This document shows positions 8,809-63,824 of a DNA stretch of 64,000 nucleotides, piece by piece (the first letter of the stretch is position 1; each line of letters begins with the position of its first letter). Source of the stretch: Chlamydiota bacterium (lineage in GTDB: Bacteria; Auribacterota; JACPWU01); contig JACOUC010000034.1 in NCBI GenBank assembly GCA_016178055.1, positions 20,621-84,620 of the forward strand. The letters run 5' to 3'. Both the position numbers and the translations under genes were made by a program. Below the pieces are notes generated by a model. It was given only the letters and a program-made list of their open reading frames with translations, was not told where the DNA came from and did no database searches.

Positions 8809-8882
8809 CGGGAGTGACGGGGCTCGAACCCGCGACCTCTGCCGTGACAGGGCAGCGCTCTAGCCAATTGAGCTACACCCCC
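8809..8882 (-). tRNA. tRNA-Asp (anticodon GTC)
   Basis: Minus-strand cloverleaf: GGGGGTGTAGCTCAATTGGCTAGAGCGCTGCCCTGTCACGGCAGAGGTCGCGGGTTCGAGCCCCGTCACTCCCG; 7-bp acceptor stem, anticodon loop CTGTCAC, T-loop GGTTCGAGCC; CCA not encoded. Confidence 0.8.
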
Positions 8883-8887
8883 AACAT

Positions 8888-9016
8888 TAAATCAACATTC
8901 AAAAACCAAAATGCAAAATGACAATGTAAAATTTAAAACTTCCTTTTCGCAATAGCATTAGATCATTTTTGGATTTTGATATGTCATTTTGATGTTTGAT
9001 CTTTGATTTTTGAATT
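8888..9016. repeat. Family A palindromic element (copy A2)
   Basis: aaaaccaaaatgcaaaatgacaatgtaaaatttaaaa .. ttttggattttgatatgtcattttgatgtttgatctttgatttttgaa. Confidence 0.8.
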
Positions 9017-10254: not shown

Positions 10255-10269
10255 CGAAACCCTCCGCCA

Positions 10270-10402
10270 AAAAATCCAAAATTCGAAAATCAAAATGCAA
10301 AATGACAAATCAAAATCCAAAAATTTCTAGTGCTATTGCAAAGGTAAAATTTTAAATTTTACAATGTCATTTTAGTTTTTGATTTTTGCATTTTGGATTT
10401 AA
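10270..10402. repeat. Family A palindromic element (copy A3) filling the entire icd/aminotransferase intergenic gap
   Basis: aaatccaaaattcgaaaatcaaaatgcaaaatgacaaatcaaaatccaaaaat .. acaatgtcattttagtttttgatttttgcattttggattt. Confidence 0.8.
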
Positions 10403-16880: not shown

Positions 16881-17930
16881 ATGGCAGAAACTCTTGAAAA
16901 AACACTTTCAAAATACACCATCGAAGGAGAGCTTTATAGCCTCCTCCCCGATGGAAAAATTCAATGTTATGCCTGTGGTCATTTATGCAAAATCGCCCCC
17001 GACCATCGAGGGGTGTGTCTCGTCCGATCCAATCGAGATGGAAAACTTTATGTCCCTTTTGGCTACGTGGGAGCCCTTCAGCATGATCCCATCGAGAAAA
17101 AACCTTTCTTTCACGCCCTTCCAGGCTCGTCTGCCTTAAGCTTTGGAATGCTGGGATGTGATTTTCACTGTTCGTATTGTCAAAATTGGTTCACCTCTCA
17201 GGCCTTAAGAGACCCTCAAGCAGAATCCTCACCTCATCCCATCAGTCCCCAAGAACTGGTCCGTCTGACACAAAAATATCAAGCCCCTGTCATTGCCAGC
17301 ACTTACAATGAACCCTTGATTACCAGTGAATGGGCTGCCGCCATTTTCAAAGAAGCCAAACGAGCAGGCCTTAAAACAGCCTATATCTCAAATGGGAATG
17401 CGACAGAAAGGGTGCTTGATTATCTTCGTCCCTGGGTTGATCTTTATAAAGTGGATCTAAAAAGTTTTGACGAAAATCATTATCGCCAACTCGGAGGGCA
17501 GCTCCAAACAGTCCTTAAAACGATTTCTCTTCTGAAAGAAAAAGGATTTTGGGTAGAAGTTGTCACTCTGTGTATTCCTGGATTTAATGATTCCGATCAA
17601 GAGCTCAAAAAAATAGCCCAATTTCTTGTTTCTATTTCAAAAGAAATTCCCTGGCATGTCACCGCCTTTCATCAAGACTACAGAATGCAGGATCGAAACG
17701 GAACACCTGCCTCCACCCTTTTAAGGGCCGCCCACATTGGAAAAGAAGCCGGACTTGATTTTGTCTATGCTGGGAATCTTCCGGGTCAGGTTGGAGAATT
17801 TGAGAATACACATTGCCCTCATTGTCAGACAACGATTATTGAACGTTTGGGTTTTAATGTGATTAAAAATCGACTAGTCAATGGCCAATGCCCACAATGT
17901 CAAACTAAGATTCCAGGAGTGTGGGAGTAG
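16881..17930 (+). CDS. AmmeMemoRadiSam-system radical SAM enzyme (PFL-activating-enzyme-like)
   Basis: 349 aa; N-terminal CYACGHLCKIAPDHRGVCLVRSNRDGKLY signature, radical SAM cluster GCDFHCSYCQNW, C-terminal CPHC/CPQC. Confidence 0.8.
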   Translation: MAETLEKTLSKYTIEGELYSLLPDGKIQCYACGHLCKIAPDHRGVCLVRSNRDGKLYVPFGYVGALQHDPIEKKPFFHALPGSSALSFGMLGCDFHCSYCQNWFTSQALRDPQAESSPHPISPQELVRLTQKYQAPVIASTYNEPLITSEWAAAIFKEAKRAGLKTAYISNGNATERVLDYLRPWVDLYKVDLKSFDENHYRQLGGQLQTVLKTISLLKEKGFWVEVVTLCIPGFNDSDQELKKIAQFLVSISKEIPWHVTAFHQDYRMQDRNGTPASTLLRAAHIGKEAGLDFVYAGNLPGQVGEFENTHCPHCQTTIIERLGFNVIKNRLVNGQCPQCQTKIPGVWE

Positions 17931-17936
17931 GTCGTA

Positions 17937-18060
17937 ATATCAAAAATCAAAATGCAAATATCAAAATGACAAACTAAAATTTAAATAGTTAAAACCTAAG
18001 ACGTTGCAAAATTTTGGATTTCAATCTGTCATTTTGATTCTTGTCATCATGAACTTTCAG
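17937..18060. repeat. Family A palindromic element (copy A5)
   Basis: atcaaaaatcaaaatgcaaatatcaaaatgacaaactaaaatttaaat .. ttttggatttcaatctgtcattttgattcttgtca; additional arm-like fragment at 18128-18165. Confidence 0.75.
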
Positions 18061-21262: not shown

Positions 21263-22534
21263 TTAATTTTGGATCTTGATTTTTGAATTTTGGATTTTTA
21301 AAGACACCACCACTTCGCAATGTTGGGTTTGAGGAAATAAATCAATGGGTTGAATACGGTCAAGGTGATATCTTTTTTTGACGAGGAAACTCAAATCCCG
21401 AGCCAGAGTGGTTGGATTACAAGAAACATAGACCACCTGAGGAGTCCCTAAAGTGACAAGGGATTCTAGAACACTTGGGGTACAACCGGCACGGGTTGGA
21501 TCAAGAATAATGCGATCGGGACTCTCCCCGAGATCTTTTTTTCCCTGTTTTAAAAATTTCTCTACACTTTTTTCAACAAATTTACAATTTGAAAGTCCAT
21601 TCTCTTGGGCATTGATTTTAGCAAAGGAAATTGCACTTTCGTCGGACTCCACGCCTACACATTTTCTAACCTTAGAACCTAAAAAAACACCGAAAAGTCC
21701 CACACCACAGTAAGTATCCAGCAAAAATTCATCCCCTTTAAGTTCTAAAAAATCCCGAACGCACTGAATCAGAAAAGGAATGGTCTCCAAATTCACTTGA
21801 AAAAAAGAGAGTGGAGGAACCTTGAAAGTTTTTCCATCCACCTTTAAAGAAATAAACTCAAATCCCCTTAAATCTACTTTCCCACAATGGCTTAAAAAAA
21901 ATTCCTCAACTCCATTTTCAGTCTCCCAAAATTTAATCCCTTGAGTCCATTCAGGGATATGGTCCTCTCCTTTAAGAATTTTTTGACGGAGCATTTGGTA
22001 AGCTTGATTAATTTGAGGAGAAGTGATTGGGCAATGATCCACGTCAATAACAGACTCGTTCGACCGATTCACAAAGCCGATTTTAATTTCATCTCTATCT
22101 CTCACAACATGGAAATCCACCCGACTACGATATCCATAAGCCTGAGAAGAACCAATAATAGGCTCTATTTCAAAATCTTTTAATCGTCCAATTCTTTCAA
22201 GGGCATCACGAACCTGATTCTCTTTTATTTTTAACTGGTGAGGATAATCAATATGCTGGTATTGACAGCCACCACATTCACCAAAGACAGAGCAGGAAGG
22301 TTTGATTCGATGCGAAGAAGGCTCTAAAATTTCTTTTACACGGGCCCGCAAAAATTTTTTTTTGACTTGAATCACCTCCGCTAAAACCTTCTCTCCATCA
22401 ATCCCCCCCTCCACAAAAATAACTAAACCGTCCAAACGAGCAACGGCTTCTCCGCCAAAGGCGATGGAATCCAATTGAAGTTCAATGAGATCACCGAAAC
22501 AATATTTTGATGATGGATTTTCCATAGGATTCAC
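21263..22534 (-). CDS. rlmD: 23S rRNA (uracil-5)-methyltransferase, TRAM-domain RumA/RlmD family; C-terminal [11 protein letters not shown] tail from Family A half-repeat
   Basis: 423 aa; TRAM N-terminus, 4Cys cluster, TYCGVGLFG SAM motif, DPTRAGC. Confidence 0.8.
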   Translation of the reverse strand: MNPMENPSSKYCFGDLIELQLDSIAFGGEAVARLDGLVIFVEGGIDGEKVLAEVIQVKKKFLRARVKEILEPSSHRIKPSCSVFGECGGCQYQHIDYPHQLKIKENQVRDALERIGRLKDFEIEPIIGSSQAYGYRSRVDFHVVRDRDEIKIGFVNRSNESVIDVDHCPITSPQINQAYQMLRQKILKGEDHIPEWTQGIKFWETENGVEEFFLSHCGKVDLRGFEFISLKVDGKTFKVPPLSFFQVNLETIPFLIQCVRDFLELKGDEFLLDTYCGVGLFGVFLGSKVRKCVGVESDESAISFAKINAQENGLSNCKFVEKSVEKFLKQGKKDLGESPDRIILDPTRAGCTPSVLESLVTLGTPQVVYVSCNPTTLARDLSFLVKKRYHLDRIQPIDLFPQTQHCEVVVSLKIQNSKIKIQN

Positions 22535-22544
22535 TGATGGAATT

Positions 22545-22672
22545 TTAAATCAAAAACCAAATATCAAAAATAAAAATGACAGATTAAAATCCAAAATGTA
22601 TCTACGCTTAGTTTTGTGAAAAATTTCGATCTTTGATTTGTCATTTTGATATTTGCATTTTGATTTTTGATA
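22545..22672. repeat. Family A palindromic element (copy A7)
   Basis: aaatcaaaaaccaaatatcaaaaataaaaatgacagattaaaatccaaaat .. ctttgatttgtcattttgatatttgcattttgatttttgat. Confidence 0.8.
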
Positions 22673-22679
22673 TAAGAAA

Positions 22680-23753
22680 CTACTCTCCAACCTTTGTCCG
22701 CTTTAAGAAGGCTCCTCTCAACTGCCCACAAGCAGCTTCAATGTCTCGGCCCTTACTCCGACGATAAGTAACGGCAACGCCCAGCGCTCTCAGTTCAGCC
22801 ACGAAACTTTCTCCATGGAGAGAGCGTTCTAACTGAGTCCCTTCAATCGGATTATATTCAATCACATTAATACTATGGGCAATATTTTGGACCATGCTTG
22901 CCAAGGCACGGGCATCACTCACACGATCATTTACATCTTTCAAAAGCACATATTCAAAGGTGACGCGGCGGCTCGTGCTTTCAGAATATTTTTTTAAAAC
23001 GGCCATTAGCGTAGAGAGCGAATATTGATCATTGATCTGCATAATCTGGCTTCGAATCCGATCTTGTGTGGCATGAAGAGAAATACTGAGACGTACTTGA
23101 CTTAACGCCTCTCCTGCCTCAATCCATTTTAAAATCCCTGGGACATAACCCACCGTTGAAACCGTTATTTTTCGAGCCCCGATCCCTAATCCCCAAGGGG
23201 CTTTTAAAATCTGAAGGGTCTTCACTAAATTGTCAAAATTAAGAAGCGGCTCTCCCATCCCCATAAAAACAATATGCCCAGGGCGTTCTCCTTTTTTTAA
23301 ATCCGCAACAATGGCCAGAATCTGTCCGACCATTTCATGGGTTTCAAGATGTCGCTTAAATTTCACCTGGCCACTGGCACAAAAACTGCATTTCATGGGG
23401 CAGCCTACTTGCGTCGAAACACAGATAGTTTTAAAACGGGCTTGAGGCATCCATACAGCTTCCACCATTTCATCATCTGAAAGCCGAAACAAATATTTCA
23501 CACTCTGATCCATTTTGGAATGGGCCCGTTCCACCACCGAAAGATCATGAATTTGTACTTCACTTTTTAGGATTTCCTTTAACTTCTTAGGCAAATTTGA
23601 AATTTCGCTCACATCCTTATTCCCTCTGCGATAAACCCCATCCAAAATCTGCTGAGCCCGGTAAGCTTCAAAACCCCAGGCAAGACATTGCGCCTGAAGC
23701 TCTTCCAAAAGAAGACCCGATAGAAAAATTTTTGTTTTTTTAGGATTAGTCAT
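22680..23753 (-). CDS. rlmN: 23S rRNA/tRNA (adenine2503-C2)-methyltransferase, radical SAM
   Basis: 357 aa; CVSTQVGCPMKCSFCASG cluster; GMGEPLLN. Confidence 0.9.
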   Translation of the reverse strand: MTNPKKTKIFLSGLLLEELQAQCLAWGFEAYRAQQILDGVYRRGNKDVSEISNLPKKLKEILKSEVQIHDLSVVERAHSKMDQSVKYLFRLSDDEMVEAVWMPQARFKTICVSTQVGCPMKCSFCASGQVKFKRHLETHEMVGQILAIVADLKKGERPGHIVFMGMGEPLLNFDNLVKTLQILKAPWGLGIGARKITVSTVGYVPGILKWIEAGEALSQVRLSISLHATQDRIRSQIMQINDQYSLSTLMAVLKKYSESTSRRVTFEYVLLKDVNDRVSDARALASMVQNIAHSINVIEYNPIEGTQLERSLHGESFVAELRALGVAVTYRRSKGRDIEAACGQLRGAFLKRTKVGE

Positions 23754-23879: not shown

Positions 23880-23960
23880 TCGCTTCGCTCAGGACGACGT
23901 CTGGCTCAAGCCCTTGCTCTTGAGTTCACGCGCCAATTTCGGTTTTAGGGTTAACCCTCA
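23880..23960. repeat. Family H repeat (TCTGGCTCAAGCYCTTGCKTCT..GTTCACGCG) copy 1; second copy at 45860-45925
   Basis: About 40 nt at roughly 80% identity shared between 23898-23945 and 45873-45920. Confidence 0.5.
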
Positions 23961-29280: not shown

Positions 29281-30474
29281 TTAAATCCGGTCCTCCAACT
29301 CGCAAAGCCGCTTATGCTCGTTCAAGGCAAAACGATCCGTCATACCCGCAATATAATCGCAGACCACTTGATAAAGATGAGCCCCCTTCGTCATGCTGCC
29401 AAAGTCAGGTCCGCTGTTGGCGGATTGGCCCAAAGGGCTAACGACAGGGGGTGTGACTTTTAATTTTGCTTGAGTCGTTTCTTTCAGAAGATGAGGACTC
29501 TCCTGATAAATTTTAAAAAGATCGCAAACAACTTCATGCGCTCGGGTGTTCATCTTCTCTACCAGAACATGATTATAAAGAAATTTAAATAAAAACTCCC
29601 TTAAACTCTGCACTTGTTTTCTCATCAAAGGACTAAAGTCAATCAAGCGACGATTGACTTGGCTCAAATCATCTGGGCTTTTCAAATCAACCGATTGAAT
29701 CATCTTTTCACTGTTTTCAACCAAATCTGTCACCATGGAATTAATCATATTACGCACGGTGTAATAACAGCGAACTTCATTCTCAACATTCGGAAAATCA
29801 TTTTTCACTTTTTGAAAGGTATCAGTCCACAATTCGACTTGCTCAAGATCTTTTTCGTTCAATAATTCAGACGCCAGCCCATCATCGACGTCATGACAGA
29901 GGTAGGCCGTGTCATCAGAGCAATCAGCAATTTGAGCTTCCAGGCTTGAAAGATTTGCGACTTTACCTGGACGATGTTTTTGAATCCCTTCACGAACCTC
30001 CCAAGTCAAATTGAGTCCTTCAAACTGGGGGTAGCGCCTTTCCAGTTTCTCAACAATTCGAAGACTCTGCTGATTATGCTCAAATCCCCCAATATCTTTC
30101 ATCATGACATCCAGCGCTTTTTCCCCACTGTGACCGAAGGGAGGGTGTCCCACATCATGAGCCAGGCAAATCGCTTCAGTTAAATCTTCGTTCAAACATA
30201 AAGCCCTAGCGATGTTTCGGCCAATCTGAGCAACCTCCATCGTATGCGTTAGTCGCGTCCGATAATGATCCCCTTCATGGTTCACAAAAACTTGGGTCTT
30301 ATACTCCAAACGGCGAAAAGCCCGTGAATGAACAATGCGGTCCCGATCCCTTTGAAAAGCCGTTCGAAAAGGATGCTCCTCTTCGACATACACCCGTCCA
30401 GGCGTCTCTCCGCTTTTCCGTGCATAGGGAGCTAGAATTTTTTCTTCTATGGCTTCATACTCTTGACGAGTCAT
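29281..30474 (-). CDS. dgt: dGTP triphosphohydrolase-like HD-domain protein
   Basis: HSRAFRRLEYKTQVF..HYRTRLTHTMEVAQIGR..HDVGHPPFGH; start at MTRQEY (upstream 21 codons in ORF track are repeat A8 translation). Confidence 0.8.
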   Translation of the reverse strand: MTRQEYEAIEEKILAPYARKSGETPGRVYVEEEHPFRTAFQRDRDRIVHSRAFRRLEYKTQVFVNHEGDHYRTRLTHTMEVAQIGRNIARALCLNEDLTEAICLAHDVGHPPFGHSGEKALDVMMKDIGGFEHNQQSLRIVEKLERRYPQFEGLNLTWEVREGIQKHRPGKVANLSSLEAQIADCSDDTAYLCHDVDDGLASELLNEKDLEQVELWTDTFQKVKNDFPNVENEVRCYYTVRNMINSMVTDLVENSEKMIQSVDLKSPDDLSQVNRRLIDFSPLMRKQVQSLREFLFKFLYNHVLVEKMNTRAHEVVCDLFKIYQESPHLLKETTQAKLKVTPPVVSPLGQSANSGPDFGSMTKGAHLYQVVCDYIAGMTDRFALNEHKRLCELEDRI

Positions 30475-30488
30475 ATCATAACCTCTGA

Positions 30489-30616
30489 AAATCCAAAATC
30501 CAAAAATCAAAATGCAAAATGACGATCCAAAATTCAAATATTTTTAACGCAACGACATGGGAAACATTTTGGATTTTGATGTGTCATTTTGATTTTTGAT
30601 TTTTGATTTTTGATTT
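30489..30616. repeat. Family A palindromic element (copy A8) between dgt start and der stop
   Basis: aaatccaaaatccaaaaatcaaaatgcaaaatgacgatccaaaattcaaat .. ttttggattttgatgtgtcattttgatttttgatttttgatttttgattt. Confidence 0.8.
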
Positions 30617-31939
30617 ATAAGTAAATTGTATGGGAACCCCTTCAAAACCAAATTTTTTTCGAAACTCTCGTTCTAGAAAAAACCGGTAGGACTCTTTCAC
30701 AAAGTTTGCCTGATTGACTTGAATACTAAATTGAGGGGGGGTTACTCCATCCTGAGTCATCGAAAAAAATCGAGGGACATGTCCTTGTTCACTGGGAGGT
30801 TGACGAAACTCTATCGCCCGATGAATAAATTTGTCTAGATCGTCTTCTGAAATTCGAACCCGCGCATTGTCATAAACTTGAATAATTTTTTGAATTAAAT
30901 TTTCGATTCTAAACCCTGTTAAGGCTGAACAAAAAATCATAGGATAAATCTCCAAAAACTTCCACCGTGAGACCAGCATCTTAGAAAATTCTTTTTCAGG
31001 TGCTTCTTTAACCAGATCCCATTTATTCAAAGCCAAGACACATCCCTTCATGCCTCTACGAATCTCATCCAAAATCCTGACATCTTGAGCACTCACTCCA
31101 GAGGCACCATCTAAAACTAAAACCGAAAGATCAGCCCGGCGAATACTGTTTAAAGCCCGCATGACACTGAAAGTCTCAGGGCCCCTTCGAACCTGTTTTC
31201 TCTTACGCATCCCGGCGGTATCCACAAAAACAAAGGGTCGTCCTCCAATTTCAATCTCGACATCTACCGCATCCCGTGTGGTTCCAGGAGCATCATCTAC
31301 AATTAAACGTTTTTTTCCAAAAAGATGATTGATCAGGGTTGATTTTCCTACATTGGGTTTTCCAACCACCGACACTTTAATCGCATCAACAACAGGAATC
31401 ACTTTTTGATCTTTATTCTCATCGCTTTTTTCAGGTTTTTCTAATATTTCTTCTACAAAATCCATTAATTCTGAAATACCTCGCCCATGGGTTGCAGAAA
31501 TCATCACCACCGGTTCAAAACCTAATTGATGAAACTCTCGAGCGGCCAATTCCTCATTCAGATTATCTACTTTATTGACCACCAAAAACACCTTTTTCCC
31601 AGATTCTCTAACCCACCTGGCCACCTCTCGATCCAGTGACGTGATCCCTTCTTGGACATCGACTGTAAAAAGTAAAAGGCTGGCTTCTTTTAAAGCTTCG
31701 CGGACCTGTTCGCGAACTTGTTGATGAAGAGAATCCTTTTCTCGAAGATCCACACCTCCGGTATCCACCAAATTAAAGAGAAGTCCATTGGATTCACAAC
31801 GTGTCTGAACCCGATCACGTGTCACACCCGATTCTTCATGAACAATTGAAATCCGATGGCCTACAAGACGGTTAAAGAGCGTCGATTTTCCGACATTGGG
31901 TCGACCAATAATGGCAATGGTATTTTTTTTAAGCATCAT
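30584..31939 (-). CDS. der: ribosome-biogenesis GTPase Der (EngA), double GTPase domain; C-terminal KIKNQKSK tail and TGA from Family A repeat
   Basis: Two P-loops GRPNVGKST and GKPNVGKST, KH-like C-terminus. Confidence 0.9.
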   Translation of the reverse strand: MMLKKNTIAIIGRPNVGKSTLFNRLVGHRISIVHEESGVTRDRVQTRCESNGLLFNLVDTGGVDLREKDSLHQQVREQVREALKEASLLLFTVDVQEGITSLDREVARWVRESGKKVFLVVNKVDNLNEELAAREFHQLGFEPVVMISATHGRGISELMDFVEEILEKPEKSDENKDQKVIPVVDAIKVSVVGKPNVGKSTLINHLFGKKRLIVDDAPGTTRDAVDVEIEIGGRPFVFVDTAGMRKRKQVRRGPETFSVMRALNSIRRADLSVLVLDGASGVSAQDVRILDEIRRGMKGCVLALNKWDLVKEAPEKEFSKMLVSRWKFLEIYPMIFCSALTGFRIENLIQKIIQVYDNARVRISEDDLDKFIHRAIEFRQPPSEQGHVPRFFSMTQDGVTPPQFSIQVNQANFVKESYRFFLEREFRKKFGFEGVPIQFTYKSKIKNQKSK

Positions 31940-39794: not shown

Positions 39795-40905
39795 TCAATT
39801 TGGTCCTTTTTTCAAATACGCTTGAATAAATAAATCAATTTCTCCATCCATGACCGCATTTCCATTTGAAGTTTCGACCCCTGTCCGATGGTCTTTGACT
39901 AAGGTATAGGGCTGAAACACATAAGAACGAATTTGGCTTCCCCAGGCGATATCGGCTTTTTGACCATAAACTTTGGCCATTTTTTCTTCTTGTTCTTTTT
40001 GCTTCAGAGCATAAACTCGGGCCCTTAAAATTTTAAAGGCTGTCGCTTTATTTTTATGTTGAGAGCGTTCATTTTGGCAACTCACGACAATCCCTGTCGG
40101 AAGATGGGTGATTCTCACCGCTGAATCTGTCTTGTTCACATGTTGTCCCCCAGCCCCACTCGCACGAAAGGTGTCAATTTTGAGATCTTTTTCATCTAAA
40201 TCGACTGGAATGTCGTCAGTAATTTCAGGAATTACATCGATAGAAGCAAACGAGGTATGACGGCGTTTATTAGAATCAAAGGGCGAAATCCGGACTAAGC
40301 GATGAATGCCTTTTTCCGCCTTTAAATATCCATAGGCGTAATCGCCCTCAACAATTAAAGTCACATTCTTAACCCCTACCTCCTCTCCAGGCAAAATTTC
40401 TGTAATTTCATCTTTAAAACCGTGACGTTCAATCCAGCGCCGATACATTCTTAAAAGCATTTCAGCCCAATCGCAAGATTCGGTTCCGCCCGCACCCGAA
40501 TGAACGGTCAAAATGGCTGGATTACGATCATAAGGGCCACCTAAAATATTACGAAGCTCAAGATCAGAAAGATTTTTTTCAACTAAAATAAGACTTTTCT
40601 CAAGTTCTTCTCTTAATTCATGAGCCTCTGGAGAGTCGTCCCCCTTCACCAATTCTAAAATGGCCTGGAGATCATGTACTTCCTTCTCTAAACGACCTAC
40701 GGGCTCAAGCTTTGATTTAAGGAGTTTTAAATCCTCAATAATTTTCTTTGATTTTTCACCCTGATCCCAAAAATCCTCCAGAGCCATTTCCCCTTCAAGG
40801 GATTTTAGACGCACTATTTTATGATCGTAGTCAAAGATACCTCCTGAGCTCCCCCAAATTCTTGACCACCTTTTCTACTCTGTCTGCAATCTCACTTGGC
40901 ATCAT
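39795..40905 (-). CDS. prfB: peptide chain release factor 2 with programmed +1 ribosomal frameshift (frame 0: 40834..40905; +1 frame: 39795..40832)
   Basis: Frame-0 ORF MMPSEIADRVEKVVKNLGELRRYL then TGA within AGG AGG TAT CTT TGA CTA (canonical SD-like + CUU UGA C shift site at 40828-40848); downstream frame SGAGGQHVNKTDSAVR, GGQ motif. Confidence 0.85.
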
Positions 40906-40971
40906 ACTCTTTCTTCCCCTTTCAAGTTTTGAAATAATCTTCGTTATTTTCAATAAAATTAAATTAACAGT

Positions 40972-41100
40972 GAAAATCCAAAAATCAAACATCAAAAACC
41001 AAAATGACAAATCAAAATTAAAATATTTTTCAAGACAAAGACACAGATAAATTTTGAATTTTAGTTTGTCATTTTGATTTTTGGATTTTGATTTTTGATA
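40972..41100. repeat. Family A palindromic element (copy A9) between prfB start region and lnt stop
   Basis: aaaatccaaaaatcaaacatcaaaaaccaaaatgacaaatcaaaattaaaat .. attttgaattttagtttgtcattttgatttttggattttgatttttgat. Confidence 0.8.
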
Positions 41101-42592
41101 TTACAAGAAATAGAGCTACCATTAGACTATAGATCCATGCAAAAAAGTCACCGTATTGGGCATAGAGGGTTTTAACACGCTCCACTCTCATTTCCTGAGA
41201 TTTGAAACCCTCAATTTCTAAAGTGTCCCCTTCTTTATTTTGAACCTTTCCCAAAATTTCCCCATAAGGAGAAATGAAGGCTGAAACACCCGTATTGGTC
41301 GCCCTCACCAGGCCCACCCCATTCGCGACACTAGAAAAACGGGCAAGGTTTAAGTGTTCTTCGGCCGATCGAGAAATACCAAACCAGGCATCATTGGTTA
41401 AATTAATCATCAGCTCGGCCCCTTTTAAAATAAATTTTCGGACATGCCCAGGGAAAATATCTTCAAAACATATCACACTCGAGAAATGAATCCCATTAAT
41501 CTCAAAAACTTTAAAGTTTTGTCCCCCAGAGAAATCAATTTCTCCCAAAGTCATATTGGCAACCCACGGAATCCATTTTCGCAGTGGCACATATTCTCCA
41601 CAGGGAACCAAGTGAATTTTATCGTATTGTCCGACAATCTGGCCATCAGAATTGAGTAAAAAAGCTGTATTGGTCACCACTCTCTGGGGATATAAACGGT
41701 CATCTTCTCCCCCCACTAAAAGATAGGCCCCAACTTGATGGGCAAGTTTAGACATTTTTCTTTGAAGATGCCTCTCCGTCTTTAAATTTCCAGGAAGGGC
41801 TGTCTCAGGCCAGACAATCAAGTCCGGATGGGATCTTGCAGCTCTTAAAGTAAGATTTGTATATCGACGGAAGTTCGAACGTTCTTCTTTAATATCCCAT
41901 TTTTCACTTTGAGGAATGTTCCCCTGAACCACTGTAACTTTCAAAACAGGCCCTTTACTTTCCAAAGAATGAGCCTTGGCAAGTCGCCACATCCCATAAA
42001 AATAGTTTCCGGCAACTAAAATAATACAAATAAAACCCAAAACAATTTTTTTAGAAATGGATAAATTTTTCGGAAATAAAATTTCGTAAAGGGAGCGATT
42101 AATAAAAAAAATTAAGAATGAAAGACTGCTTTCTCCCCCCCAAGAAACCATCTGAATCAAGGGAAGATGTTGCGATTGAGAGTATCCCAAAAAGAACCAG
42201 GGAAAACCTAAAGATCCTAAGGTTCTCAAATATTCAAGAAAGGACCACAGGCTGGATAAAAATAGGATCGAGCCAAGAGGATGAGAGGGACATATTTTTT
42301 TTGAAAACCAGCCAAAAACACCAAAATAAAAGGCGAGAATCAACGAAAGGAGAAGAGTTCCTATGACGGTAACCTGGGATAGCCAGGCAGCTGATGCCAG
42401 ATAAAGCGCCAGGCCTGTGAGCGTCCACCAGAGGCACGATTTCTCTGGAGTTTTGACCCTATCGGAAAGATAAAACAAAGGCAAAAAGGCAATCCAGGCG
42501 GTGACTCCGGCGCAACTTCCACGAAGGGAAAGAAAAAGAAGAAAAAAAGATATTAAGGACAGATAAATACAGTTCAAGTAAAGACAGTTCAA
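41069..42592 (-). CDS. lnt: apolipoprotein N-acyltransferase; C-terminal SKIKIQKSK tail from Family A repeat
   Basis: 507 aa; N-terminal polytopic membrane domain, C-terminal CN-hydrolase domain (VVWPETALP, active-site Cys region VICFEDIF). Confidence 0.8.
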   Translation of the reverse strand: MNCLYLNCIYLSLISFFLLFLSLRGSCAGVTAWIAFLPLFYLSDRVKTPEKSCLWWTLTGLALYLASAAWLSQVTVIGTLLLSLILAFYFGVFGWFSKKICPSHPLGSILFLSSLWSFLEYLRTLGSLGFPWFFLGYSQSQHLPLIQMVSWGGESSLSFLIFFINRSLYEILFPKNLSISKKIVLGFICIILVAGNYFYGMWRLAKAHSLESKGPVLKVTVVQGNIPQSEKWDIKEERSNFRRYTNLTLRAARSHPDLIVWPETALPGNLKTERHLQRKMSKLAHQVGAYLLVGGEDDRLYPQRVVTNTAFLLNSDGQIVGQYDKIHLVPCGEYVPLRKWIPWVANMTLGEIDFSGGQNFKVFEINGIHFSSVICFEDIFPGHVRKFILKGAELMINLTNDAWFGISRSAEEHLNLARFSSVANGVGLVRATNTGVSAFISPYGEILGKVQNKEGDTLEIEGFKSQEMRVERVKTLYAQYGDFFAWIYSLMVALFLVISKIKIQKSK

Positions 42593-42700
42593 AGTTTAAG
42601 GTTTAAGGTTCAAAGAAAAAAAACTAAAAAACAGCCCACGGCTAAGAGTTTAGAGTTTTCAACTTTAAACTTTTAACTTTAAACTGTTTTTACGCTCCAC
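42592..42700. repeat. Family C palindromic repeat (AAGTTTAAGGTTTAAGG .. AACTTTAAACTTTTAACTTTAAACTG)
   Basis: Inverted word arrays flanking short unique centre; fills lnt-secA intergenic gap. Confidence 0.6.
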
Positions 42701-45700
42701 AACATTTCTTGTATTTTTTACCGCTTCCACAAGGGCAAAGATCATTGCGCCCCACCTTTGGGAGATCCCGTCGAATGGGGGCTGATGAGCGATTCACCAG
42801 AGGCATTCCTTCAGATGAGGGTTGATCTTGAGAAGATCCTCCATTGGCTCCTTGAGAAACTGGCGCAGATTGAAATTGCTGAGTCTCCTGATGAATCAAC
42901 TTTGTTGGAACACGCTTCATAACGCTTTCAAAGTATTGAGGACTCGCGGAAACGCGGAAAATTTCCCTTGTAATTTCAGCCTTCATATCATACATCATTT
43001 CAGAAAACATATTGAAGCCCTCAGCACGATATTCAACCAGGGGATCTTTCTGGCCGTAAGCCCTTAAGTACACCCCCTCTCTCAAAGAATCCATATTATA
43101 AAGATGCTCCCGCCACAGACGGTCAATCACCTTGAGAAGGACGACCTGTTCGAGACGGCGCATTCTTTCTTCTTCAATTTTCTCTTTAAATTCATAAAGA
43201 GACTTGAATTCATCAATGAGAGTCTGAGTTACTTCTTCCTTTGTTTTCTCCTCAAACTCGGAAATACGATCTGAAAGGTGAAGAGGAAAATTAGAATCCA
43301 CCCATTTCAGAAGTCCAGCCAAATCAATTTCGTCAGTCTTCCCGGAAAAAATTTCATCGACCTTGATGGACAAAACCTCTTCAATAATATTGAGGACATC
43401 TTCTTTTAGATTTTCGGACTGAAGAACCCGATTCCTAAAATCGTAAATGACCTGACGCTGTTTATTCATCACATCATCAAATTCAAGGGTATGCTTACGA
43501 ACTCCAAAATTTCTCTGTTCCACCCTTTTTTGAGCCGTCTCAATCGATCGGTTCAAAAGAGGATGAGTGAGGTCTTGTCCCTCTTCAATCCCCATTTTAT
43601 CCATGACCCGCGCAATCCGGTCCGAACCAAAGAGACGCATCAAATCGTCTTCCAAAGAAATATAGAATCGGGATGAACCGGGGTCTCCCTGACGGGCGCT
43701 GCGGCCCCTTAGCTGGCGGTCAATTCGGCGAGATTCATGCCGCTCGGATCCAATCACGTGAAGGCCGCAAGGAACTTTTTTATAGCAATCCAATTCATTG
43801 ATGAAAGGGCAAACCTCTCTTCCGTCACGAGCGGCAATTAAAGCACAATTTGAATGTTTGACCACCCCCGGCCCCAGTTTAATATCCGTTCCTCGTCCAG
43901 CCATGTTAGTCGCAATGGTCACAGCTCCCGGCTGTCCCGCCCTTGAAACAATTTCAGCCTCTTGCTGGTGATATCGGGCATTTAAAACCGAGTGGGGAAT
44001 GCTGCGTCTTTTGAGGAGTCTGCTTAAAACTTCAGAGGTTTCAACAGAAACCGTTCCAACCAAGACGGGGCGCTTGGCTTGATAGCATTCAGTAATTTCA
44101 TCAATGATGGCATTGAACTTTTCCCGACGGGTTTTATAAATCACATCGTTATGATCGATTCTGCGAATTTTGTCATTGGTTGGAATCACCATGACCGGCA
44201 ATTTATAAATCTGAAAAAATTCATTGGCCTCAGTCTCAGCGGTTCCTGTCATTCCAGCGAGCTTTTTATACATTCTAAAATAATTTTGAATCGTGATCGT
44301 TGCAAAGGTCTGTGTTTCCCGTTCAATACTCACCCCTTCCTTTGCCTCCAGGGCCTGATGGAGTCCATCGCTGTAACGCCGACCTGGCATTAAACGACCT
44401 GTAAACTCATCCACAATAATGACTTTATTGTCTTGAATGACATAATCAACATCCTTTTCAAAAAGAGAATAAGCCTTAAGCAGTTGACCCAAATTATGGA
44501 TTTTTTCACTTTTTTCACCATACTCAACCTGAAGCTTCTCCTTCTTTCTCTCTTTTTCTTCAGAAGTCAAAGTCTCATCAGCATCAATGTCTTGTTGGTC
44601 ATTCACTAAATCAGGCAAAACAAATTCATCAGCATCATGAGGACTAATGAGTTTTCGACCTTGATCCGTTAAATCGACATCGTGACCCTTTTCATCAATC
44701 GTAAAATATAATTCTTCCAATACTTTAAAGCGCTCTTCCTTGCGAAGATCACTCATCATCTGAAGTTCTGTTTTGTCGATCATTCGCCTTACTTCCGGAT
44801 CTTCCATCATTTTAAGAAGTTGACGATGCTCAGGAATTCCCTTCAGAACCTGAAAAAGCTTAATGGCCGCGGCATCTTCTTCTTCATCGGTGGCCCCGTC
44901 TTTATCCAAAATATCGCGAGCTTCCTTTAAGAGACGATTGCAAAGCAAACTTTGTTTTTGAAAAAGATTTTGAACAAGGGGTTTAACCTGGTCATAGCGG
45001 TGAGTGGAGACTGATGCGGGACCTGAAATAATCAAAGGAGTTCGGGCTTCGTCCACCAAAATGCTATCGACTTCATCCACAATCGCAAAAAAATGGCCGC
45101 GTTGAACCTGCTCTTCCTGGCGGCTCGCCATGCTGTTATCCCTCAAATAATCAAAGCCAAATTCGCTATTGGTGCCATAAACAATGTCACAGGCATAAAC
45201 CTTTCGACGAGCCTCAAAATCCATATCATTCTGAAGATAGGAAACCGTCAGCCCTAAAAATTCATAAATGGGCCGCATCCACTCACAGTCGCGGCGAGCC
45301 AAATAATCATTTACCGTCACCAGATGAACAGGATTGACTAACGCATTTAAATAAACGGGAAGCGTAGCCACCAGAGTTTTTCCTTCCCCTGTTGCCATTT
45401 CCGCAATTTTTCCCTGGTGAAGGACCTTCCCTCCTACAAGCTGAACATCAAAAGGAATCATTTCCCATTTGAGCTGATGACCCACAACATCCCAACTTTT
45501 CCCAACATGGCGTCGACACACGTTTTTAACAACGGCAAAAGCTTCAGTAGAAAGATCGTCCAAGGATTCCCCCCCAGACAATCTCTTTCTAAACTCAATC
45601 GTCTTGGCTTTAATCTCTTCATCTGTGAGTTTTTGATATTCTTTTTCTTTTTCATTAACGAGAAGAGCCCACTTGCAAAGTCGAGCTACCTCACGGTCAT

Positions 45701-45740
45701 TCTTTGTGCCGATGGTCTTGCCGAGAATCCACTGAAGCAT
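42690..45740 (-). CDS. secA: preprotein translocase ATPase SecA
   Basis: 1016 aa; MLQWILGK.., DEAD-like motor, C-terminal zinc finger [14 protein letters not shown]. Confidence 0.95.
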
Positions 45741-45859
45741 AAATTATTCCTCAAGTTCATTTAACCCAGAATTTGCAATAGACCGCGGAATTCGACGCAA
45801 GATCTTGGCCACCTTGGCCTTCAGAAAGCCTCGACAGACATCTGTCAATGTATGTCTAC

Positions 45860-46030
45860 GTTTTCTTCAGGCCAATCTGGCTCAAGCTCTTGCGTCTCGG
45901 TTCACGCGTCTATTGCAAAATCTGGGTTTAATTCCAGAAGGGACGAGTCTAGCAATTAGGCTCTTGATTTTCAAGAACGATTGGAGGGTCAAATTCAAAA
46001 TGCAAAATGACAGACAAAAATTCAAAATTC
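45860..46030. repeat. Family H repeat copy 2 plus Family A half element (left arm) upstream of secA
   Basis: ctggctcaagctcttgcgtctcggttcacgcgtctatt; caaattcaaaatgcaaaatgacagacaaaaattcaaaattc. Confidence 0.5.
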
Positions 46031-47508
46031 TATGGACACCCAGATTTTGCCTTCGAAGCAAACAATGCATCGAGATCCAGTATCTTGTGAAAATATCCAC
46101 TCTGCTGCAAGTCTCTGGTAATGGGTCCGGTGCAAACGAGCATTTTTTCTACGGTATAAAATTTCTTGGGTTTGAGAAAAGCAACTTTCCTTTCAACATC
46201 CTGGACAATGGAAAGACCTATAGGGGAAGTCAAAAATTTACACTCCATAACCGTCAAGACATGTCCTTGCCTATGCACAAGAATATCAATCTGCAACCCG
46301 ACATCCTTCGAACCCTTCTTTCTGGCAGGCTGCCTGAAAAAAGGGCCATAACCCAAAATTTCATTCAGCGGGATACCAGCCGCCGATAACAATCCCGGAA
46401 GGTTTTTCATGCATAATCTTTCAAATGCCAGTCCAAAGTAGGTATCAATGCTTTTCCCAGCCAATTGCTGGAATAAACCCGGCTTCGTGTTCATTTCTAT
46501 CACATGCTTATTTGGTTTAAGGTAAGAAAAATAGAACCGAAGCCATTCATCCCATAACACAATCTTTTTCGTTTTTTCGCCCCCTCCTCTGATGGATAAA
46601 GGAGAAAACACCTTCACAAAATCAGCCTGCTCAAGCGCCTGAATATATCCGGATAAGCCGCCCCCGGGTTTCATCTGGATTCGCTCTGCCAAGCCTTCTT
46701 TTGAATCGCTATGTTTTGCTAAAGCCTCTGCGATGGTTTCGTAGGTCTTAATGACTTTGAACTGTTCTTTAAACAAAGTCTCAAATTCGGTCATAAAAAA
46801 TGAGTTTTTTGTGAAACAGAGACGGTCCATGTTGGAGGTAAAAGATTGAGTCGGATCAAGTTGTTCCAAATATTTAGGGATGCCGCCAAAGACCATTAGG
46901 AATTTGGCCATCTCAAAGTTAGAACGATATTTTTTAAAAAATAAGGCTGCTTCATTGGCAGGAAGAGGTTCCAGCTTTATCTCAAAAGTCTTTCGATTAT
47001 GCAAAGCTTGAGAATGAATCAAATGCTTCAGCATAAAACTTGTCACGGAACCGCACAAAACAAGCGTAAGCTTTGGATTTTTTTTCCAAATCATATCCCA
47101 ATAAAACTTTAAAATGGAGACGAGCTCGGTACGGCCTGATGCCATCCAGGGAAATTCATCAAAAACAATGTAATGCCTTCCCCTTTGGATATGAGGGGTG
47201 AGTCCATCAAAGGCTTCTTTCCAGTTACGAGCGAGAATTTTGGGGGTGTGGGTCTCTCTTGCCAGTTGGTCTGTGAAATGATCAATCTGTTTGAGGGTAG
47301 AAACTTTTTGTAAAGCCTCAAAATATAAGTCGCTCTTATGTTTTTTAAACTGCATCAAGAGCGCACTTTTCCCGATGCGGCGCCTCCCGTACACAATACC
47401 AAACTCCGCTCGGTTTGAGGCGACTGCCTCCTGGATGATTTTGAATTCATTCTCTCGTCCAACAAACATAGATTGAGTATAGATCGGCAAATATCGCTTG
47501 TCAATCAA
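46030..47508 (-). CDS. AAA-family ATPase with DUF234 (archaeal-type ATPase_2)
   Basis: 492 aa; FVGRENEFKIIQEAV..GIVYGRRRIGKSAL Walker A, DEFPW Walker B; C-terminal DUF234-like region. Confidence 0.7.
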   Translation of the reverse strand: MIDKRYLPIYTQSMFVGRENEFKIIQEAVASNRAEFGIVYGRRRIGKSALLMQFKKHKSDLYFEALQKVSTLKQIDHFTDQLARETHTPKILARNWKEAFDGLTPHIQRGRHYIVFDEFPWMASGRTELVSILKFYWDMIWKKNPKLTLVLCGSVTSFMLKHLIHSQALHNRKTFEIKLEPLPANEAALFFKKYRSNFEMAKFLMVFGGIPKYLEQLDPTQSFTSNMDRLCFTKNSFFMTEFETLFKEQFKVIKTYETIAEALAKHSDSKEGLAERIQMKPGGGLSGYIQALEQADFVKVFSPLSIRGGGEKTKKIVLWDEWLRFYFSYLKPNKHVIEMNTKPGLFQQLAGKSIDTYFGLAFERLCMKNLPGLLSAAGIPLNEILGYGPFFRQPARKKGSKDVGLQIDILVHRQGHVLTVMECKFLTSPIGLSIVQDVERKVAFLKPKKFYTVEKMLVCTGPITRDLQQSGYFHKILDLDALFASKAKSGCP

Positions 47509-47530
47509 TTCTTGCCAATCTGTTGAATTA

Positions 47531-47585
47531 TTATATAGATCGGCAAGAATTAAAATTTAACGTTTCTTGCCGATCTATGATCCTC
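47531..47585. repeat. perfect inverted repeat/hairpin (atagatcggcaagaa .. ttcttgccgatctat), partly duplicated
   Basis: tatatagatcggcaagaattaaaatttaacgtttcttgccgatctatg. Confidence 0.5.
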
Positions 47586-47656
47586 CTACACGGATCGAAG
47601 AAATAGATTTTTTTACTGACCGATGTTCGCTCAATACTGTATGATGCTTTTTTAGA

Positions 47657-48343
47657 ATGGATTTTAAAATGGCCAAAAAATTTATTTTTATTCTTACTGC
47701 CTGCATATCGATCATATTCATTCTTTACTGGGCTAAACACAGAGGAAAAGAGCTTCAAGCGCCACCCCAATCCATTGTTCCTAAAAAATTACTTGTAACG
47801 AAACCTCCTCTGACTCTGCAGCCTTCTAAAGCCCCTCTACCCCTTTCCACTTCCAAGCCCAAAGAAATAAAAAAGATAATCCATCTTAATCACCCTGATT
47901 TAACTTCAACGGCAGGAGAACCTCCCCTTACCACACGTCCAGAATGGATTTTGGATGAAACGGGTTCCGCAATTCCAGCACCTCCTCCTACAATTCCCTT
48001 CGAGCCTTCCTCGACGGGGTTTCCTGGATATTCTGTCACAAGCACAGAAGAAACTTGGCAGGTTTATCGAGTGGTGATGATTAACTCCGATTCTTTGGCG
48101 GAGGACTGGAGCAAAGCCAAGGGGCTTGTCGAGAATATCGGTTGTAAAATTATCTTCCAGACAGAAAAGCCTATTTACCAATTGCGGTCGTATATCCCCT
48201 CCGATCGCTGGGAAGATTTTAAATCCTCTTTGGAATCGAGCGGTTTAGCATACACCCTAGAACCTTCTGCAGACGTTGGAACCCTCGCCCCTGACCAATC
48301 GATAGGAATTTCTATCACCCTTCAACAAAAAAGAAAAAATTAG
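47657..48343 (+). CDS. hypothetical membrane-anchored proline-rich protein
   Basis: N-terminal TM FIFILTACISIIFILYW, Pro-rich linker, about 90 aa C-terminal globular region. Confidence 0.4.
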   Translation: MDFKMAKKFIFILTACISIIFILYWAKHRGKELQAPPQSIVPKKLLVTKPPLTLQPSKAPLPLSTSKPKEIKKIIHLNHPDLTSTAGEPPLTTRPEWILDETGSAIPAPPPTIPFEPSSTGFPGYSVTSTEETWQVYRVVMINSDSLAEDWSKAKGLVENIGCKIIFQTEKPIYQLRSYIPSDRWEDFKSSLESSGLAYTLEPSADVGTLAPDQSIGISITLQQKRKN

Positions 48344-59689: not shown

Positions 59690-59870
59690 CTCTTTGAGCT
59701 TTGAACCTTCGACTTGATTTCCTTCTTTCTCTTCTAGCTTCCAGCCTCTAGCGTCTAGCTCGCTTTCTGTTTTTGCCTCGAGCTCCTGCCCCGTCGGATG
59801 ACTTGGGGTCGAGCTTCCAGCCTCGAGCAGTCTTTTTTTGAACTTTGAACCATCTCTAAGGCAGCACCCT
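59690..59870. repeat. composite Family C/Family B repeat block between batB and batA
   Basis: ctttgagctttgaaccttcgactt..tctagcttccagcctctagcgtctagctc (28-mer identical to 2009-2036)..cctcgagctcc..ggtcgagcttccagcctcgagc..gaactttgaacc. Confidence 0.6.
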
Positions 59871-62679: not shown

Positions 62680-62700
62680 TTATTCACTCGCATGAATTAA

Positions 62701-62828
62701 TATCAAAAATCAAAAATCAAACATCAAAATGACAGATCAAAATTCAAAATGGCTCACAAGTTAGGATATAGAGATGATTTTTACATTTTGACTTGTCATT
62801 TTGATTTTTGCATTTTGAATTTTAAATT
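62701..62828. repeat. Family A palindromic element (copy A11) between moxR and DUF58 genes
   Basis: tatcaaaaatcaaaaatcaaacatcaaaatgacagatcaaaattcaaaat .. ttttgacttgtcattttgatttttgcattttgaatttt. Confidence 0.8.
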
Positions 62829-62834
62829 ATCTTT

Positions 62835-63824
62835 TCACGGCACTTCAATTTCTTCAAAAATTTTCTTAATGATACTGTCCGAGGTAATTTCTTCCGATTC
62901 GGCCTCAAAGGTTGTAATGAGCCGATGCCGCAGAACATCAGGCCCAATGGCCTTGATATCATCTGGAGTTACATAACCGCGACCCTTTAAAAAGGCATAG
63001 GCCTTCGCTGCCTGGGTCAAGTAAATGGTTGCTCGGGGCGAGGCACCATAGGCAATTAATTTTTTTAAATCGCCGAGTTTATGTTCTTCAGGTGAGCGTG
63101 TCGCATAAACGATATCCAGAATATAATTTTTAATTTTTTCATCCATATAAATCATGTAAATCACGGACCGCGCTTTCAGAATGTCCTGTGTATTGATGAT
63201 CTCTCCCACAGAAATTTTTTGCCCGGTCGTCATCCTTTCCAGAATCTCTCGCTCCTCTTTTTTACTGGGATAATTAAGCTTGAGTTTCAACATAAATCGA
63301 TCGACCTGAGCTTCAGGAAGCGGATAAGTCCCTTCTTGCTCAATGGGGTTCTGAGTCGCTAAAACGAGAAATGGTTCCTCCAAAGGAAATGTATTTTCAC
63401 CCAAAGTCACCTGCTTTTCCTGCATCGCTTCGAGTAATGCGCTTTGAACCTTGGCTGGAGCCCGATTAATTTCATCGGCCAAAATAAGTTGAGAAAAAAT
63501 GGGACCTTTTTTAGTTATAAATTGACTGTTTTTCGGATCATAAATCAGGGTTCCAAGCAAATCGGCAGGCAAAAGATCTGGCGTAAATTGAATTCTTTGA
63601 AATTTGGCTTGAATGGTTTGGGCAAGGGTCTTAACTGAAAGTGTCTTCGCAAGACCTGGAACTCCTTCAATCAAAACATGCCCATTGGCTAAAAGAGCAA
63701 TCAGAAGCCGTTCAATCAAATAATCCTGTCCCACAATCACCTTACCTACTTCAGCCACAATCTGTTTAACGATCACACCCTCTTGTTGAATCTTCTCATT
63801 GATTTCTTTGATATTAAAATTCAC
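62835..63824 (-). CDS. moxR: MoxR-family AAA+ ATPase
   Basis: 329 aa; GVPGLAKT Walker A, LADEINRA Walker B/sensor. Confidence 0.9.
   Translation of the reverse strand: MNFNIKEINEKIQQEGVIVKQIVAEVGKVIVGQDYLIERLLIALLANGHVLIEGVPGLAKTLSVKTLAQTIQAKFQRIQFTPDLLPADLLGTLIYDPKNSQFITKKGPIFSQLILADEINRAPAKVQSALLEAMQEKQVTLGENTFPLEEPFLVLATQNPIEQEGTYPLPEAQVDRFMLKLKLNYPSKKEEREILERMTTGQKISVGEIINTQDILKARSVIYMIYMDEKIKNYILDIVYATRSPEEHKLGDLKKLIAYGASPRATIYLTQAAKAYAFLKGRGYVTPDDIKAIGPDVLRHRLITTFEAESEEITSDSIIKKIFEEIEVP

Follow-up and report, generated by a model that had tools for sequence, protein, structure and literature searches.

A stand-alone PDC-S27-type ATPase-nuclease gene with a family-wide dual inverted repeat and an embedded, predicted leaderless promoter

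The stretch of DNA analyzed here, hereafter called the window, comprises 64,000 nucleotides (nt) of contig JACOUC010000034.1 (positions 20,621 to 84,620) from a Chlamydiota bacterium, and carries on its minus strand a gene (46030..47469) for an ATPase-nuclease of the PDC-S27 type. We found that this gene is preceded by a control region of ~110 bp in which two inverted repeats provide four half-sites with a shared core of ~10-12 bp, AGATCGGCAA, and that the same arrangement, with its half-sites co-varying between clades, stands in front of homologues in unrelated surroundings. The findings are best explained jointly by a single-gene, horizontally acquired PDC-S27 cassette of defence type, consisting of this control region and a protein with nucleoside triphosphatase (NTPase), winged-helix and PD-(D/E)XK parts that would regulate its own expression; we give this joint reading a probability of about 0.6. 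The candidate family, known but uncharacterised, thereby gains a new member. What is added here is a pair of inverted repeats, putatively a dual operator, that is found family-wide, co-varies between clades and encloses a promoter that is probably leaderless; we did not find a description of it in the literature searched.

The open reading frame (ORF) listed by the ORF program for this gene (46030..47508, minus strand) begins at the TTG at 47508 and encodes 492 amino acids (aa). In an alignment of 46 sequences, nearly all homologues begin with MFxGR at the position of the ATG at 47469, which is the true start; thus the protein, which ends at the TAG stop codon at 46030-46032, is 479 aa long, and the 13 extra codons of the longer frame are read-through of the operator. 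A previous interpretation of this DNA, made from the letters alone (the sequence-only reading), had described a 492-aa ATPase_2/DUF234 gene with the Walker A motif GRRRIGKS; gene, domains and motif stood, and only the length had to be revised. That observation was largely correct once its coordinates were corrected, although overall it was only partly confirmed, as detailed below. An identical protein is deposited as 'MAG: AAA family ATPase [Chlamydiae bacterium]' (MAG, metagenome-assembled genome). Public annotations show comparable displacements of the start: the 486-aa call by NCBI for the window protein also begins 5' of the conserved ATG, and in the public calls P0002, P0003, P0005, P0006 and P0007 (515-521 aa) the N-terminus is too long by 30-40 spurious residues, since the open frame crosses the operator array.

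Comparison with Pfam placed ATPase_2 (PF01637) on residues 15-217 (E 1.8e-18) and DUF234 on residues 326-426 (E 2.9e-6) of the 492-aa ORF, while NCBIfam had no family for the protein. The PADLOC model PDC-S27 (PDLC04984) matched over practically its whole length (E 1.3e-91, 305.9 bits, residues 15-483 against profile positions 4-473 of 474), and the PDC-S01 models matched weakly (E 3e-7). On the 479-aa protein, a P-loop NTPase with a helical lid occupies residues 1-236 (46762..47469), with Walker A at 47365-47388 and the Walker B segment YIVFDE at 47155-47172; a winged-helix domain follows at residues ~237-310 (46540..46761), and a PD-(D/E)XK nuclease corresponding to DUF234 forms the C-terminus (residues 320-479, 46033..46512), all on the minus strand. 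Its catalytic residues are E350 (46420-46422), D395 (46285-46287) and E409-C-K411 (46237-46245). This nuclease set is complete and invariant in the 46-sequence alignment, as are the Walker A motif G28RRRxGKS35 and the Walker B residues D104 and E105. The sequence-only reading had advised looking for a split nuclease or effector partner nearby; none is needed, the nuclease being the protein's own C-terminal domain.

AlphaFold (AF2) models were obtained with a confidence score (pLDDT, predicted local distance difference test) of 91.5 for the full length and 92.2 for the C-terminal domain. The N-terminal part matches 2QEN/2FNA, NB-ARC, Orc1 and MalT, and also resembles TnsC and MuB. The winged helix is seen both in the model (helices 241-252, 257-263 and 271-281; strands 285-288 and 302-305) and in the fold matches, where it falls inside the aligned span of 2QEN, Orc1 and NB-ARC; the tripartite module of NTPase, helical lid and winged helix of the STAND (signal transduction ATPases with numerous domains) and Orc1/Cdc6-like NTPases is therefore present. 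The comparison with STAND and AAA+ proteins was one of folds, and 'STAND/Orc1-like' is used here as a fold label. Going by the model, the N-terminal part is a nucleotide switch followed by a lid and a winged helix, the latter being a candidate DNA-binding module or, alternatively, a regulatory winged helix of the STAND type. The C-terminal 160 residues match PD-(D/E)XK nucleases, with scores of 9.9 for the LlaBIII nuclease domain, 9.6 for Can2, 9.5 for NucS, 7.9 for Shedu SduA, 7.8 for Cap4 and 7.5 for McrC, and many of the matched proteins are defence effectors; DUF234 had earlier been assigned to the PD-(D/E)XK superfamily (PMC3424549). No solved structure of any relative was detectable by sequence, 2QEN reaching E 0.1 at best.

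The control region lies directly upstream of the gene. The 15-bp perfect palindrome described by the sequence-only reading is real: its arms, at 47535-47549 and 47564-47578, enclose a loop of 14 nt, and no second one exists in the window (Markov controls average 0.03). It had been taken for the edge of an island; instead, it sits on the promoter side of the gene and is one of two inverted repeats. When the window was searched with its arm ATAGATCGGCAAGAA, allowing up to three mismatches, four matches were returned, all of them within 47479-47578 and in the order + - + -. The distal inverted repeat, IR1 (47535..47578), is the perfect one, formed by ATAGATCGGCAAGAA and TTCTTGCCGATCTAT; the proximal one, IR2 (47479..47523), a putative operator, consists of half-sites ATAGATCGGCAAATA (47479-47493) and TTCTTGCCAATCTGT (47509-47523) with two mismatches per arm.

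A sigma70-like promoter is embedded in this structure on the minus strand (47476..47504), its -35 element TTGACA (47499-47504) and -10 element TATACT (47476-47481) being separated by a 17-nt spacer. With 11 of 12 matches it is the best such site in 45700-47800; the -35 lies inside the IR2 spacer and the -10 overlaps and abuts the promoter-proximal half-site. Only 6 nt (CAATCT) separate the -10 from the ATG at 47469, and the gene start has no Shine-Dalgarno sequence, for which reasons we predict that the mRNA is probably leaderless. An Rfam scan of the whole window returned one tRNA only and nothing in the flanks of the gene.

It could be argued that the inverted repeats are not operators at all but hairpins in DNA or RNA (a cruciform, a terminator or an insulator between divergent genes), or else the termini of an island or transposon. 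A perfect 15-bp palindrome such as IR1 could indeed form a hairpin, it is located between divergently transcribed genes, and half a dispersed repeat (Family A, described below) abuts the other end of the gene. Nevertheless, neither neighbouring gene ends at the palindrome, no run of T follows the stem, and the loops of the inverted repeats measure 14-21 nt; moreover, the promoter is inside IR2 and the array upstream of the predicted transcription start, so that the repeats would fall outside the mRNA of the gene. Together with the comparative data that follow, this makes hairpins or termini a very improbable explanation.

The same four half-sites were found immediately 5' of the ATG in close homologues that come from unrelated contexts and have very different GC content, which indicates that the array belongs to the gene and not to an insertion site. 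The layout is forward-reverse-forward-reverse (F-R-F-R), with a start-to-start spacing of ~30/26/30. In a blind search for F-R-F-R arrays, 42 of 67 loci scored at least 26 of 30, and 24 was the highest score reached by the controls, which comprised 1340 shuffles and 313 windows of real DNA from the same loci. In the clade of 41-45% identity the layout persists, more tightly spaced and with GTGCAAACAGA as the half-site; homologues of 38-40% use AATCCGCAAA and have a 41-42-nt leader with a Shine-Dalgarno sequence. Even a clade of prophage-like viral contigs from IMG/VR at ~31% identity (L105-L110), which resembles the homologue of Wolbachia phage WO (record H16, of similar identity), shows F-R-F-R with the half-site TGGAGACA and a spacing of 29/26/30, and the architecture is therefore old.

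Within the main clade the half-site varies (GATCAGCAA, GTTCAGCAA, GATCCGCAA, GATCGGCCA, GATCGGCAT, AGTCGGCTA and AGTTGGGCAA, among others), and the four copies of each locus carry the same variant. Half-site identity is 0.91 for the two arms within a repeat and 0.90 for IR1 against IR2, whereas the spacers reach only 0.48; hairpin formation would not require two separate repeats to share a half-site in this way. A recent tandem duplication giving rise to IR1 and IR2 was also considered and rejected, the spacers being dissimilar. The locus-specific half-site, counted in 38 loci, occurred 149 times in 5.7 kb of upstream DNA and 3 times in 18.4 kb downstream; the coding sequences (52 kb) had 6 occurrences and the surrounding DNA (354 kb) had 35, which amounts to an upstream enrichment of ~200-fold over downstream, gene or rest of the locus. 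This distribution is not that of terminal inverted repeats, and a transposon-end model was rejected for want of a 3' copy of the half-site, the window holding no further match.

Promoters with at least 9 of 12 matches were identified in 32 family loci; the gap between -10 and start is exactly 6 nt in 21 of them and 6-8 nt in 26, and the loci with a 6-8-nt gap have no Shine-Dalgarno sequence. An exact-match scan of metagenomes for three consecutive half-sites gave 12 loci, and in 9 of these the array is followed by the gene at a distance of 10-12 nt. The other three (L098:2199-2264, L103:306-371 and L101:6-71) are orphan arrays with no intact gene; those of L098 and L103 diverge just after the -35 and look like deletion remnants of a cassette.

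As to what binds the four sites, a host transcription factor or other host system, such as a global regulator or a factor sensitive to GATC methylation, would be an alternative to the ATPase-nuclease itself. The commonest half-site does contain GATC, a Dam/MboI-type site, and there is no obvious correspondence between the half-site changes and the recognition helix of the winged helix. On the other hand, the same half-site is present in Omnitrophota, Elusimicrobia, Planctomycetota, Desulfobacterota, Myxococcota, Bdellovibrionota and other MAGs, for which one shared regulator is unlikely; the half-site follows the protein clade, and many variants are without GATC. Two paralogues in one Bdellovibrionota MAG are informative in this regard (L048:2220-3662, minus strand, and L048:6001-7419, plus strand): lying a few kb apart, each has a four-site array, with ACTCAGCGGAATCT as the half-site of the former and TAAGTCGGCTA as that of the latter, so their operators are predicted to be orthogonal. 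Nothing else is conserved beside the gene that could encode the factor. We consider control by a host factor improbable.

The ATPase-nuclease is the only conserved product of the cassette, and its binding to the array is thus the most economical reading: it would occupy its own four half-sites and repress its own promoter. Binding should repress since IR2 covers both the -35 and the -10. Such a circuit would keep the expression of a potentially toxic nuclease self-limiting and independent of the host after transfer to a new genome. More tentatively, the most likely role of the NTPase would be that of a switch or oligomeriser which depends on nucleotide and by which the nuclease is licensed to attack invading DNA, in an anti-phage or anti-plasmid function. 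Specific DNA binding by this fold has structural precedents in Orc1/Cdc6, which binds inverted boxes beside its own gene, and in the STAND transcription factor MalT.

Several points weigh against this interpretation. DNA binding, repression and defence are properties that we infer for the protein from its sequence and that of its surroundings. Clades with different half-sites nevertheless have a fairly conserved predicted recognition helix in the winged helix, which therefore is no more than a candidate for the binding domain and for the source of specificity; winged-helix residues that track the half-site change are suggestive at best, being confounded by phylogeny, and were not used. The winged helix of a STAND protein can be purely regulatory, and the distance of ~30 bp between half-site centres is unusually long if the repressor is a simple winged-helix dimer. 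In addition, the gene is not in a defence island within the window, and GC and skew profiles show no compositional anomaly, so that compositional evidence for transfer was dropped. Finally, the sole test of the family found in the literature was negative for phage defence, one representative in E. coli B giving no protection against T4, T5 or T7 (10.1101/2024.09.26.614923).

A more ambitious variant, which we regard as unlikely, is that the four-site array is the resting platform of an Orc1-like complex, up to four protomers assembling on ~110 bp of their own promoter, and that release or remodelling by an invader-derived signal de-represses the gene and activates the nuclease together. Winged helix and NTPase would then recognise a DNA 'address' that is peculiar to each clade and evolves along with the protein. 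If this were true, PDC-S27 would be a self-contained sensor, regulator and effector in one gene plus a cis element, portable across phyla, and the diversity of half-sites would represent a natural, readable code of protein-DNA recognition.

Turning from the array to the location of the cassette, the gene is flanked by secA (42690-45740, minus strand) and by a plus-strand cluster encoding an AAA_22 ExeA-like ATPase, a secretin and an SLT transglycosylase, which confirms the placement between secA and a cluster of pilus-assembly type made by the sequence-only reading. The 'island' of that reading consists of one gene only, with a GC content of 0.39-0.45, equal to that of the flanks. The neighbours in the window (secA, lnt, prfB, secretin, AAA_22 ATPase, SLT) gave no meaningful PADLOC hits; the suggested link to defence is supported, in that the full-length PDC-S27 match given above makes the gene a defence-type candidate, but the locus, with its housekeeping and secretin neighbours, is not a defence island.

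Synteny comparison, which had been proposed as a check, showed that the gene is not universal at this position. In the three nearest SecA relatives (76-78% identical), secA-lnt-prfB is kept in two; upstream of secA there is a V-ATPase operon in two cases and an AbiEi/AbiEii pair in one, and an ATPase_2 gene was absent from this slot in all three. The AbiEi/AbiEii pair (L091:1177-2522; PADLOC AbiEi E 2.8e-24) lies directly upstream of the secA whose product is 77% identical. The slot upstream of secA looks variable and able to hold cargo of the defence type, PDC-S27 in this genome and AbiE in a relative, and may be a hot spot.

Homologues of the ATPase, by comparison, were found elsewhere and at closer range. 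Metagenomic ones are 87-70% identical, and genome matches include Omnitrophota MAGs at 83% and 76%; the best of them (87-83%) are closer than the best SecA relative (78%). The closest homologues lie in other phyla and in unrelated contexts: a PrimPol/AEP-TOTE helicase with a serine recombinase and a primase; a sigma-like/radical-SAM cluster; a position between HEAT-repeat and topoisomerase VI genes; and one beside HAD and radical-SAM genes. Members of 50-65% identity occur in MAGs of Elusimicrobia, Planctomycetota, Desulfobacterales, Myxococcota, Bdellovibrionota, Verrucomicrobiales, Kiritimatiellae and others. All-against-all clustering of 459 neighbouring ORFs from 68 loci disclosed no conserved partner, the commonest neighbour family being present in 6 loci with variable position and strand. 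Horizontal acquisition, as the sequence-only reading had put forward, is upheld in the sense that the gene is accessory, mobile and stand-alone, judging from its absence from the slot and its unrelated contexts; the repeat boundaries on which that proposal had leaned are no evidence for it.

The commonest neighbour family and a related one found in 3 more loci are PDC-S01 (AAA_14 + DUF4143), which accompanies the gene in 9 of 68 loci (for example L032:6011-7324, L036:7485-8912 and L055:9912-11183), and a second PDC-S27 paralogue is present in 3 of 68. The PDC-S01 copy of L055 has an inverted repeat of its own, CAGTGGACTGCACAA, with the -35 in the spacer and the -10 just after it, the same design principle. 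A protein of ~800 aa combining PrimPol/AEP-TOTE with a DEAD/ResIII helicase adjoins the gene or lies near it in L008 (6595-8994), in L009 (4572-6998) and on the 86-kb contig of P0005; this adjacency is confined to the three closest metagenomic homologues (79-86%), and in one of the three loci a serine recombinase, an M78/helix-turn-helix (HTH) pair and a primase point to an integrative element. Plasmid records with a distant relative (25-31%) numbered 155 and phage records 7, one of the latter being from Wolbachia phage WO; no close relative was present in the plasmid, phage or viral-contig collections. A further copy, 63% identical and with a bacterial-type AGATCGGCAA array and sigma70-like promoter, was seen in L017 (JAIWHJ010000345.1), labelled Promethearchaeota archaeon; L017 is a 3.2-kb contig of 0.26x coverage in an Asgard MAG, and the copy reflects either mis-binning or a very recent transfer.

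These associations bear on whether the gene is immune in function. It might rather be a selfish module or one serving the maintenance of mobile genetic elements, or a factor in DNA transactions such as an Orc1-like site-specific loader or nuclease, with the array as its substrate or assembly platform. The N-terminal fold resembles that of Orc1/Cdc6, with its inverted origin boxes next to its own gene, as well as TnsC and MuB; the closest homologues stand beside the PrimPol/AEP-TOTE helicases, serine recombinase and primase just mentioned, relatives are found on plasmids and in Wolbachia phage WO, and the negative outcome of the literature test points the same way. Against this, replication or partition genes are not conserved with the gene, the window copy is chromosomal with housekeeping neighbours, the few orphan arrays seem to be what deletions have left behind, and the promoter is embedded precisely in IR2, which speaks for regulation as at least one role. 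We hold such a function to be doubtful, and a self-regulated cassette of defence type remains the reading that we prefer: an ATP-gated nuclease of patchy distribution, often near similar candidates or mobile-element genes and controlling its own level, would fit an anti-phage or anti-plasmid role.

The sequence-only reading had also noted a Family H repeat and a Family A half element beside the gene, and both are real. The half copy of the palindromic Family A repeat (45991-46027; family D3, 12 hits listed) is directly 3' of the stop codon. Full Family A elements of ~140 nt occur at 8 other intergenic sites of the window (families D1-D4), namely 7626-7771, 8871-9016, 10255-10410, 17919-18043, 22529-22684, 30465-30627, 40957-41112 and 62682-62835; they are built from AAAATCAAAATGCAAAATGACA-type arms and look like a dispersed repeat of the genome of REP (repetitive extragenic palindrome) or MITE (miniature inverted-repeat transposable element) kind. 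As Family A is dispersed through the window and is not present at homologous loci, it is a repeat of the host genome, outside the cassette and in no way specific to the gene. The second half of a split Family A element was searched for on the far side of the cassette and was not found. Family H is a two-copy similarity (family D20) of ~50 nt and ~80% identity between 45867-45914 and ~23888-23938, with a local score of 47 versus a shuffle maximum of 34; the copy at 45867-45914 lies in the upstream region of secA, near a secA promoter candidate (45946-45974, minus strand), and is likewise outside the cassette. The repeats do not serve as island boundaries, given that Family A stands at 8 other intergenic sites and that the palindrome is the distal half of the gene's own operator/promoter.

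Elsewhere in the window, the segment 37855-39503 contains three copies of a 194-nt unit (69-72% identity) and a 71-nt pair at 38497 and 39076, which suggests a repetitive protein-coding or tandem-repeat region. The motif TCTAGCTTCCAGCCTCTAGC(GTCTAGCT) is repeated at 2009-2069 and 59733-59828, with a 28-nt exact copy. The ORF for release factor RF2 (prfB, 39795-40814, minus strand) has a GTG start and is without the usual N-terminal segment, which would fit the programmed +1 frameshift that prfB typically shows.

The family to which the gene belongs is large and has a patchy but wide distribution across bacteria and archaea. A profile search of 1.84 billion representatives returned 1668 clusters (50% identity) at a threshold of E <= 1e-30 and 5165 at one of E <= 1e-10. 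According to a 2026 survey, PDC-S27 is an ATPase fused to PD-(D/E)XK with 3503 archaeal and 4562 bacterial instances, and validation is pending for most candidates of this sort (PMC12988326). As cited in that survey (PMC12988326), it is a single-gene 'phage defence candidate' called by genomic embedding in the preprint of Payne et al. (2024); the main text of the preprint does not name S27. In a cold-seep study, 8 candidate systems were expressed in E. coli B, and S05, S70, M05 and HEC-01 protected against T4, T5 or T7; the S27 representative was not among them (10.1101/2024.09.26.614923). A functional, structural or regulatory study of the family was not found in the literature on PDC-S27, DUF234, COG1672/PF03008/PF01637 and PABY2304/SSO1545.

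PDC-S27 is thereby among the most abundant candidate defence families, without demonstrated activity or mechanism, and the promoter-embedded, co-varying array offers a first concrete and cheap handle on it. The array leads one to expect a protein that binds DNA at specific sequences and controls its own abundance whatever the host; it would explain how tests in heterologous hosts could give misleading results when the promoter is foreign or the start codon wrong; and it supplies natural, putatively orthogonal pairs of operator and protein, making DNA recognition and regulation in this family directly testable.

Compared with known systems, the window protein agrees with PDC-S27 in its full-length match to the hidden Markov model, in the same ATPase + PD-(D/E)XK architecture and in being a single gene; unlike what the defining criterion of the family would have, the window copy lies outside any defence locus. 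PDC-S01 has an analogous design, with a P-loop ATPase fused to a domain of the PD-(D/E)XK superfamily (PMC12988326), and belongs to other Pfam families. The archaeal ATPase_2 proteins PABY2304 (2QEN) and SSO1545 (2FNA), the STAND NTPases (CED-4, plant NLR NB-ARC, MalT) and Orc1/Cdc6 share 10-19% identity with the window protein and are without a C-terminal PD-(D/E)XK domain. With the defence nuclease effectors (Type ISP LlaBIII, Can2/Card1, Cap4, Shedu SduA, McrC and NucS) the likeness is one of fold only, at 9-17% identity, and these have different activation modules, such as cyclic-nucleotide sensors and translocases.

At the level of control, the closest parallel is offered by the C-protein circuits of type II restriction-modification systems, in which two palindromic operators and a leaderless message keep a toxic nuclease in check, independently of the host, once it has been transferred (PMC2632904). 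The cassette in the window resembles them in having two palindromic, putative operators, IR1 and IR2, directly upstream of the gene of the presumed regulator; its mRNA is predicted to be leaderless. C proteins, however, are small HTH proteins of the Xre type, separate from the nuclease and transcribed from promoters without a good -10, whereas here the presumed regulator is the large ATPase-nuclease itself, the promoter is near consensus and the half-sites are ~30 bp apart; upstream of the nuclease there is no ORF for a small HTH protein of the Xre family, the 479-aa protein being the only conserved product. The resemblance is thus one of analogy, not of homology, and the proposed circuit likewise recalls the autoregulation of toxin-antitoxin systems.

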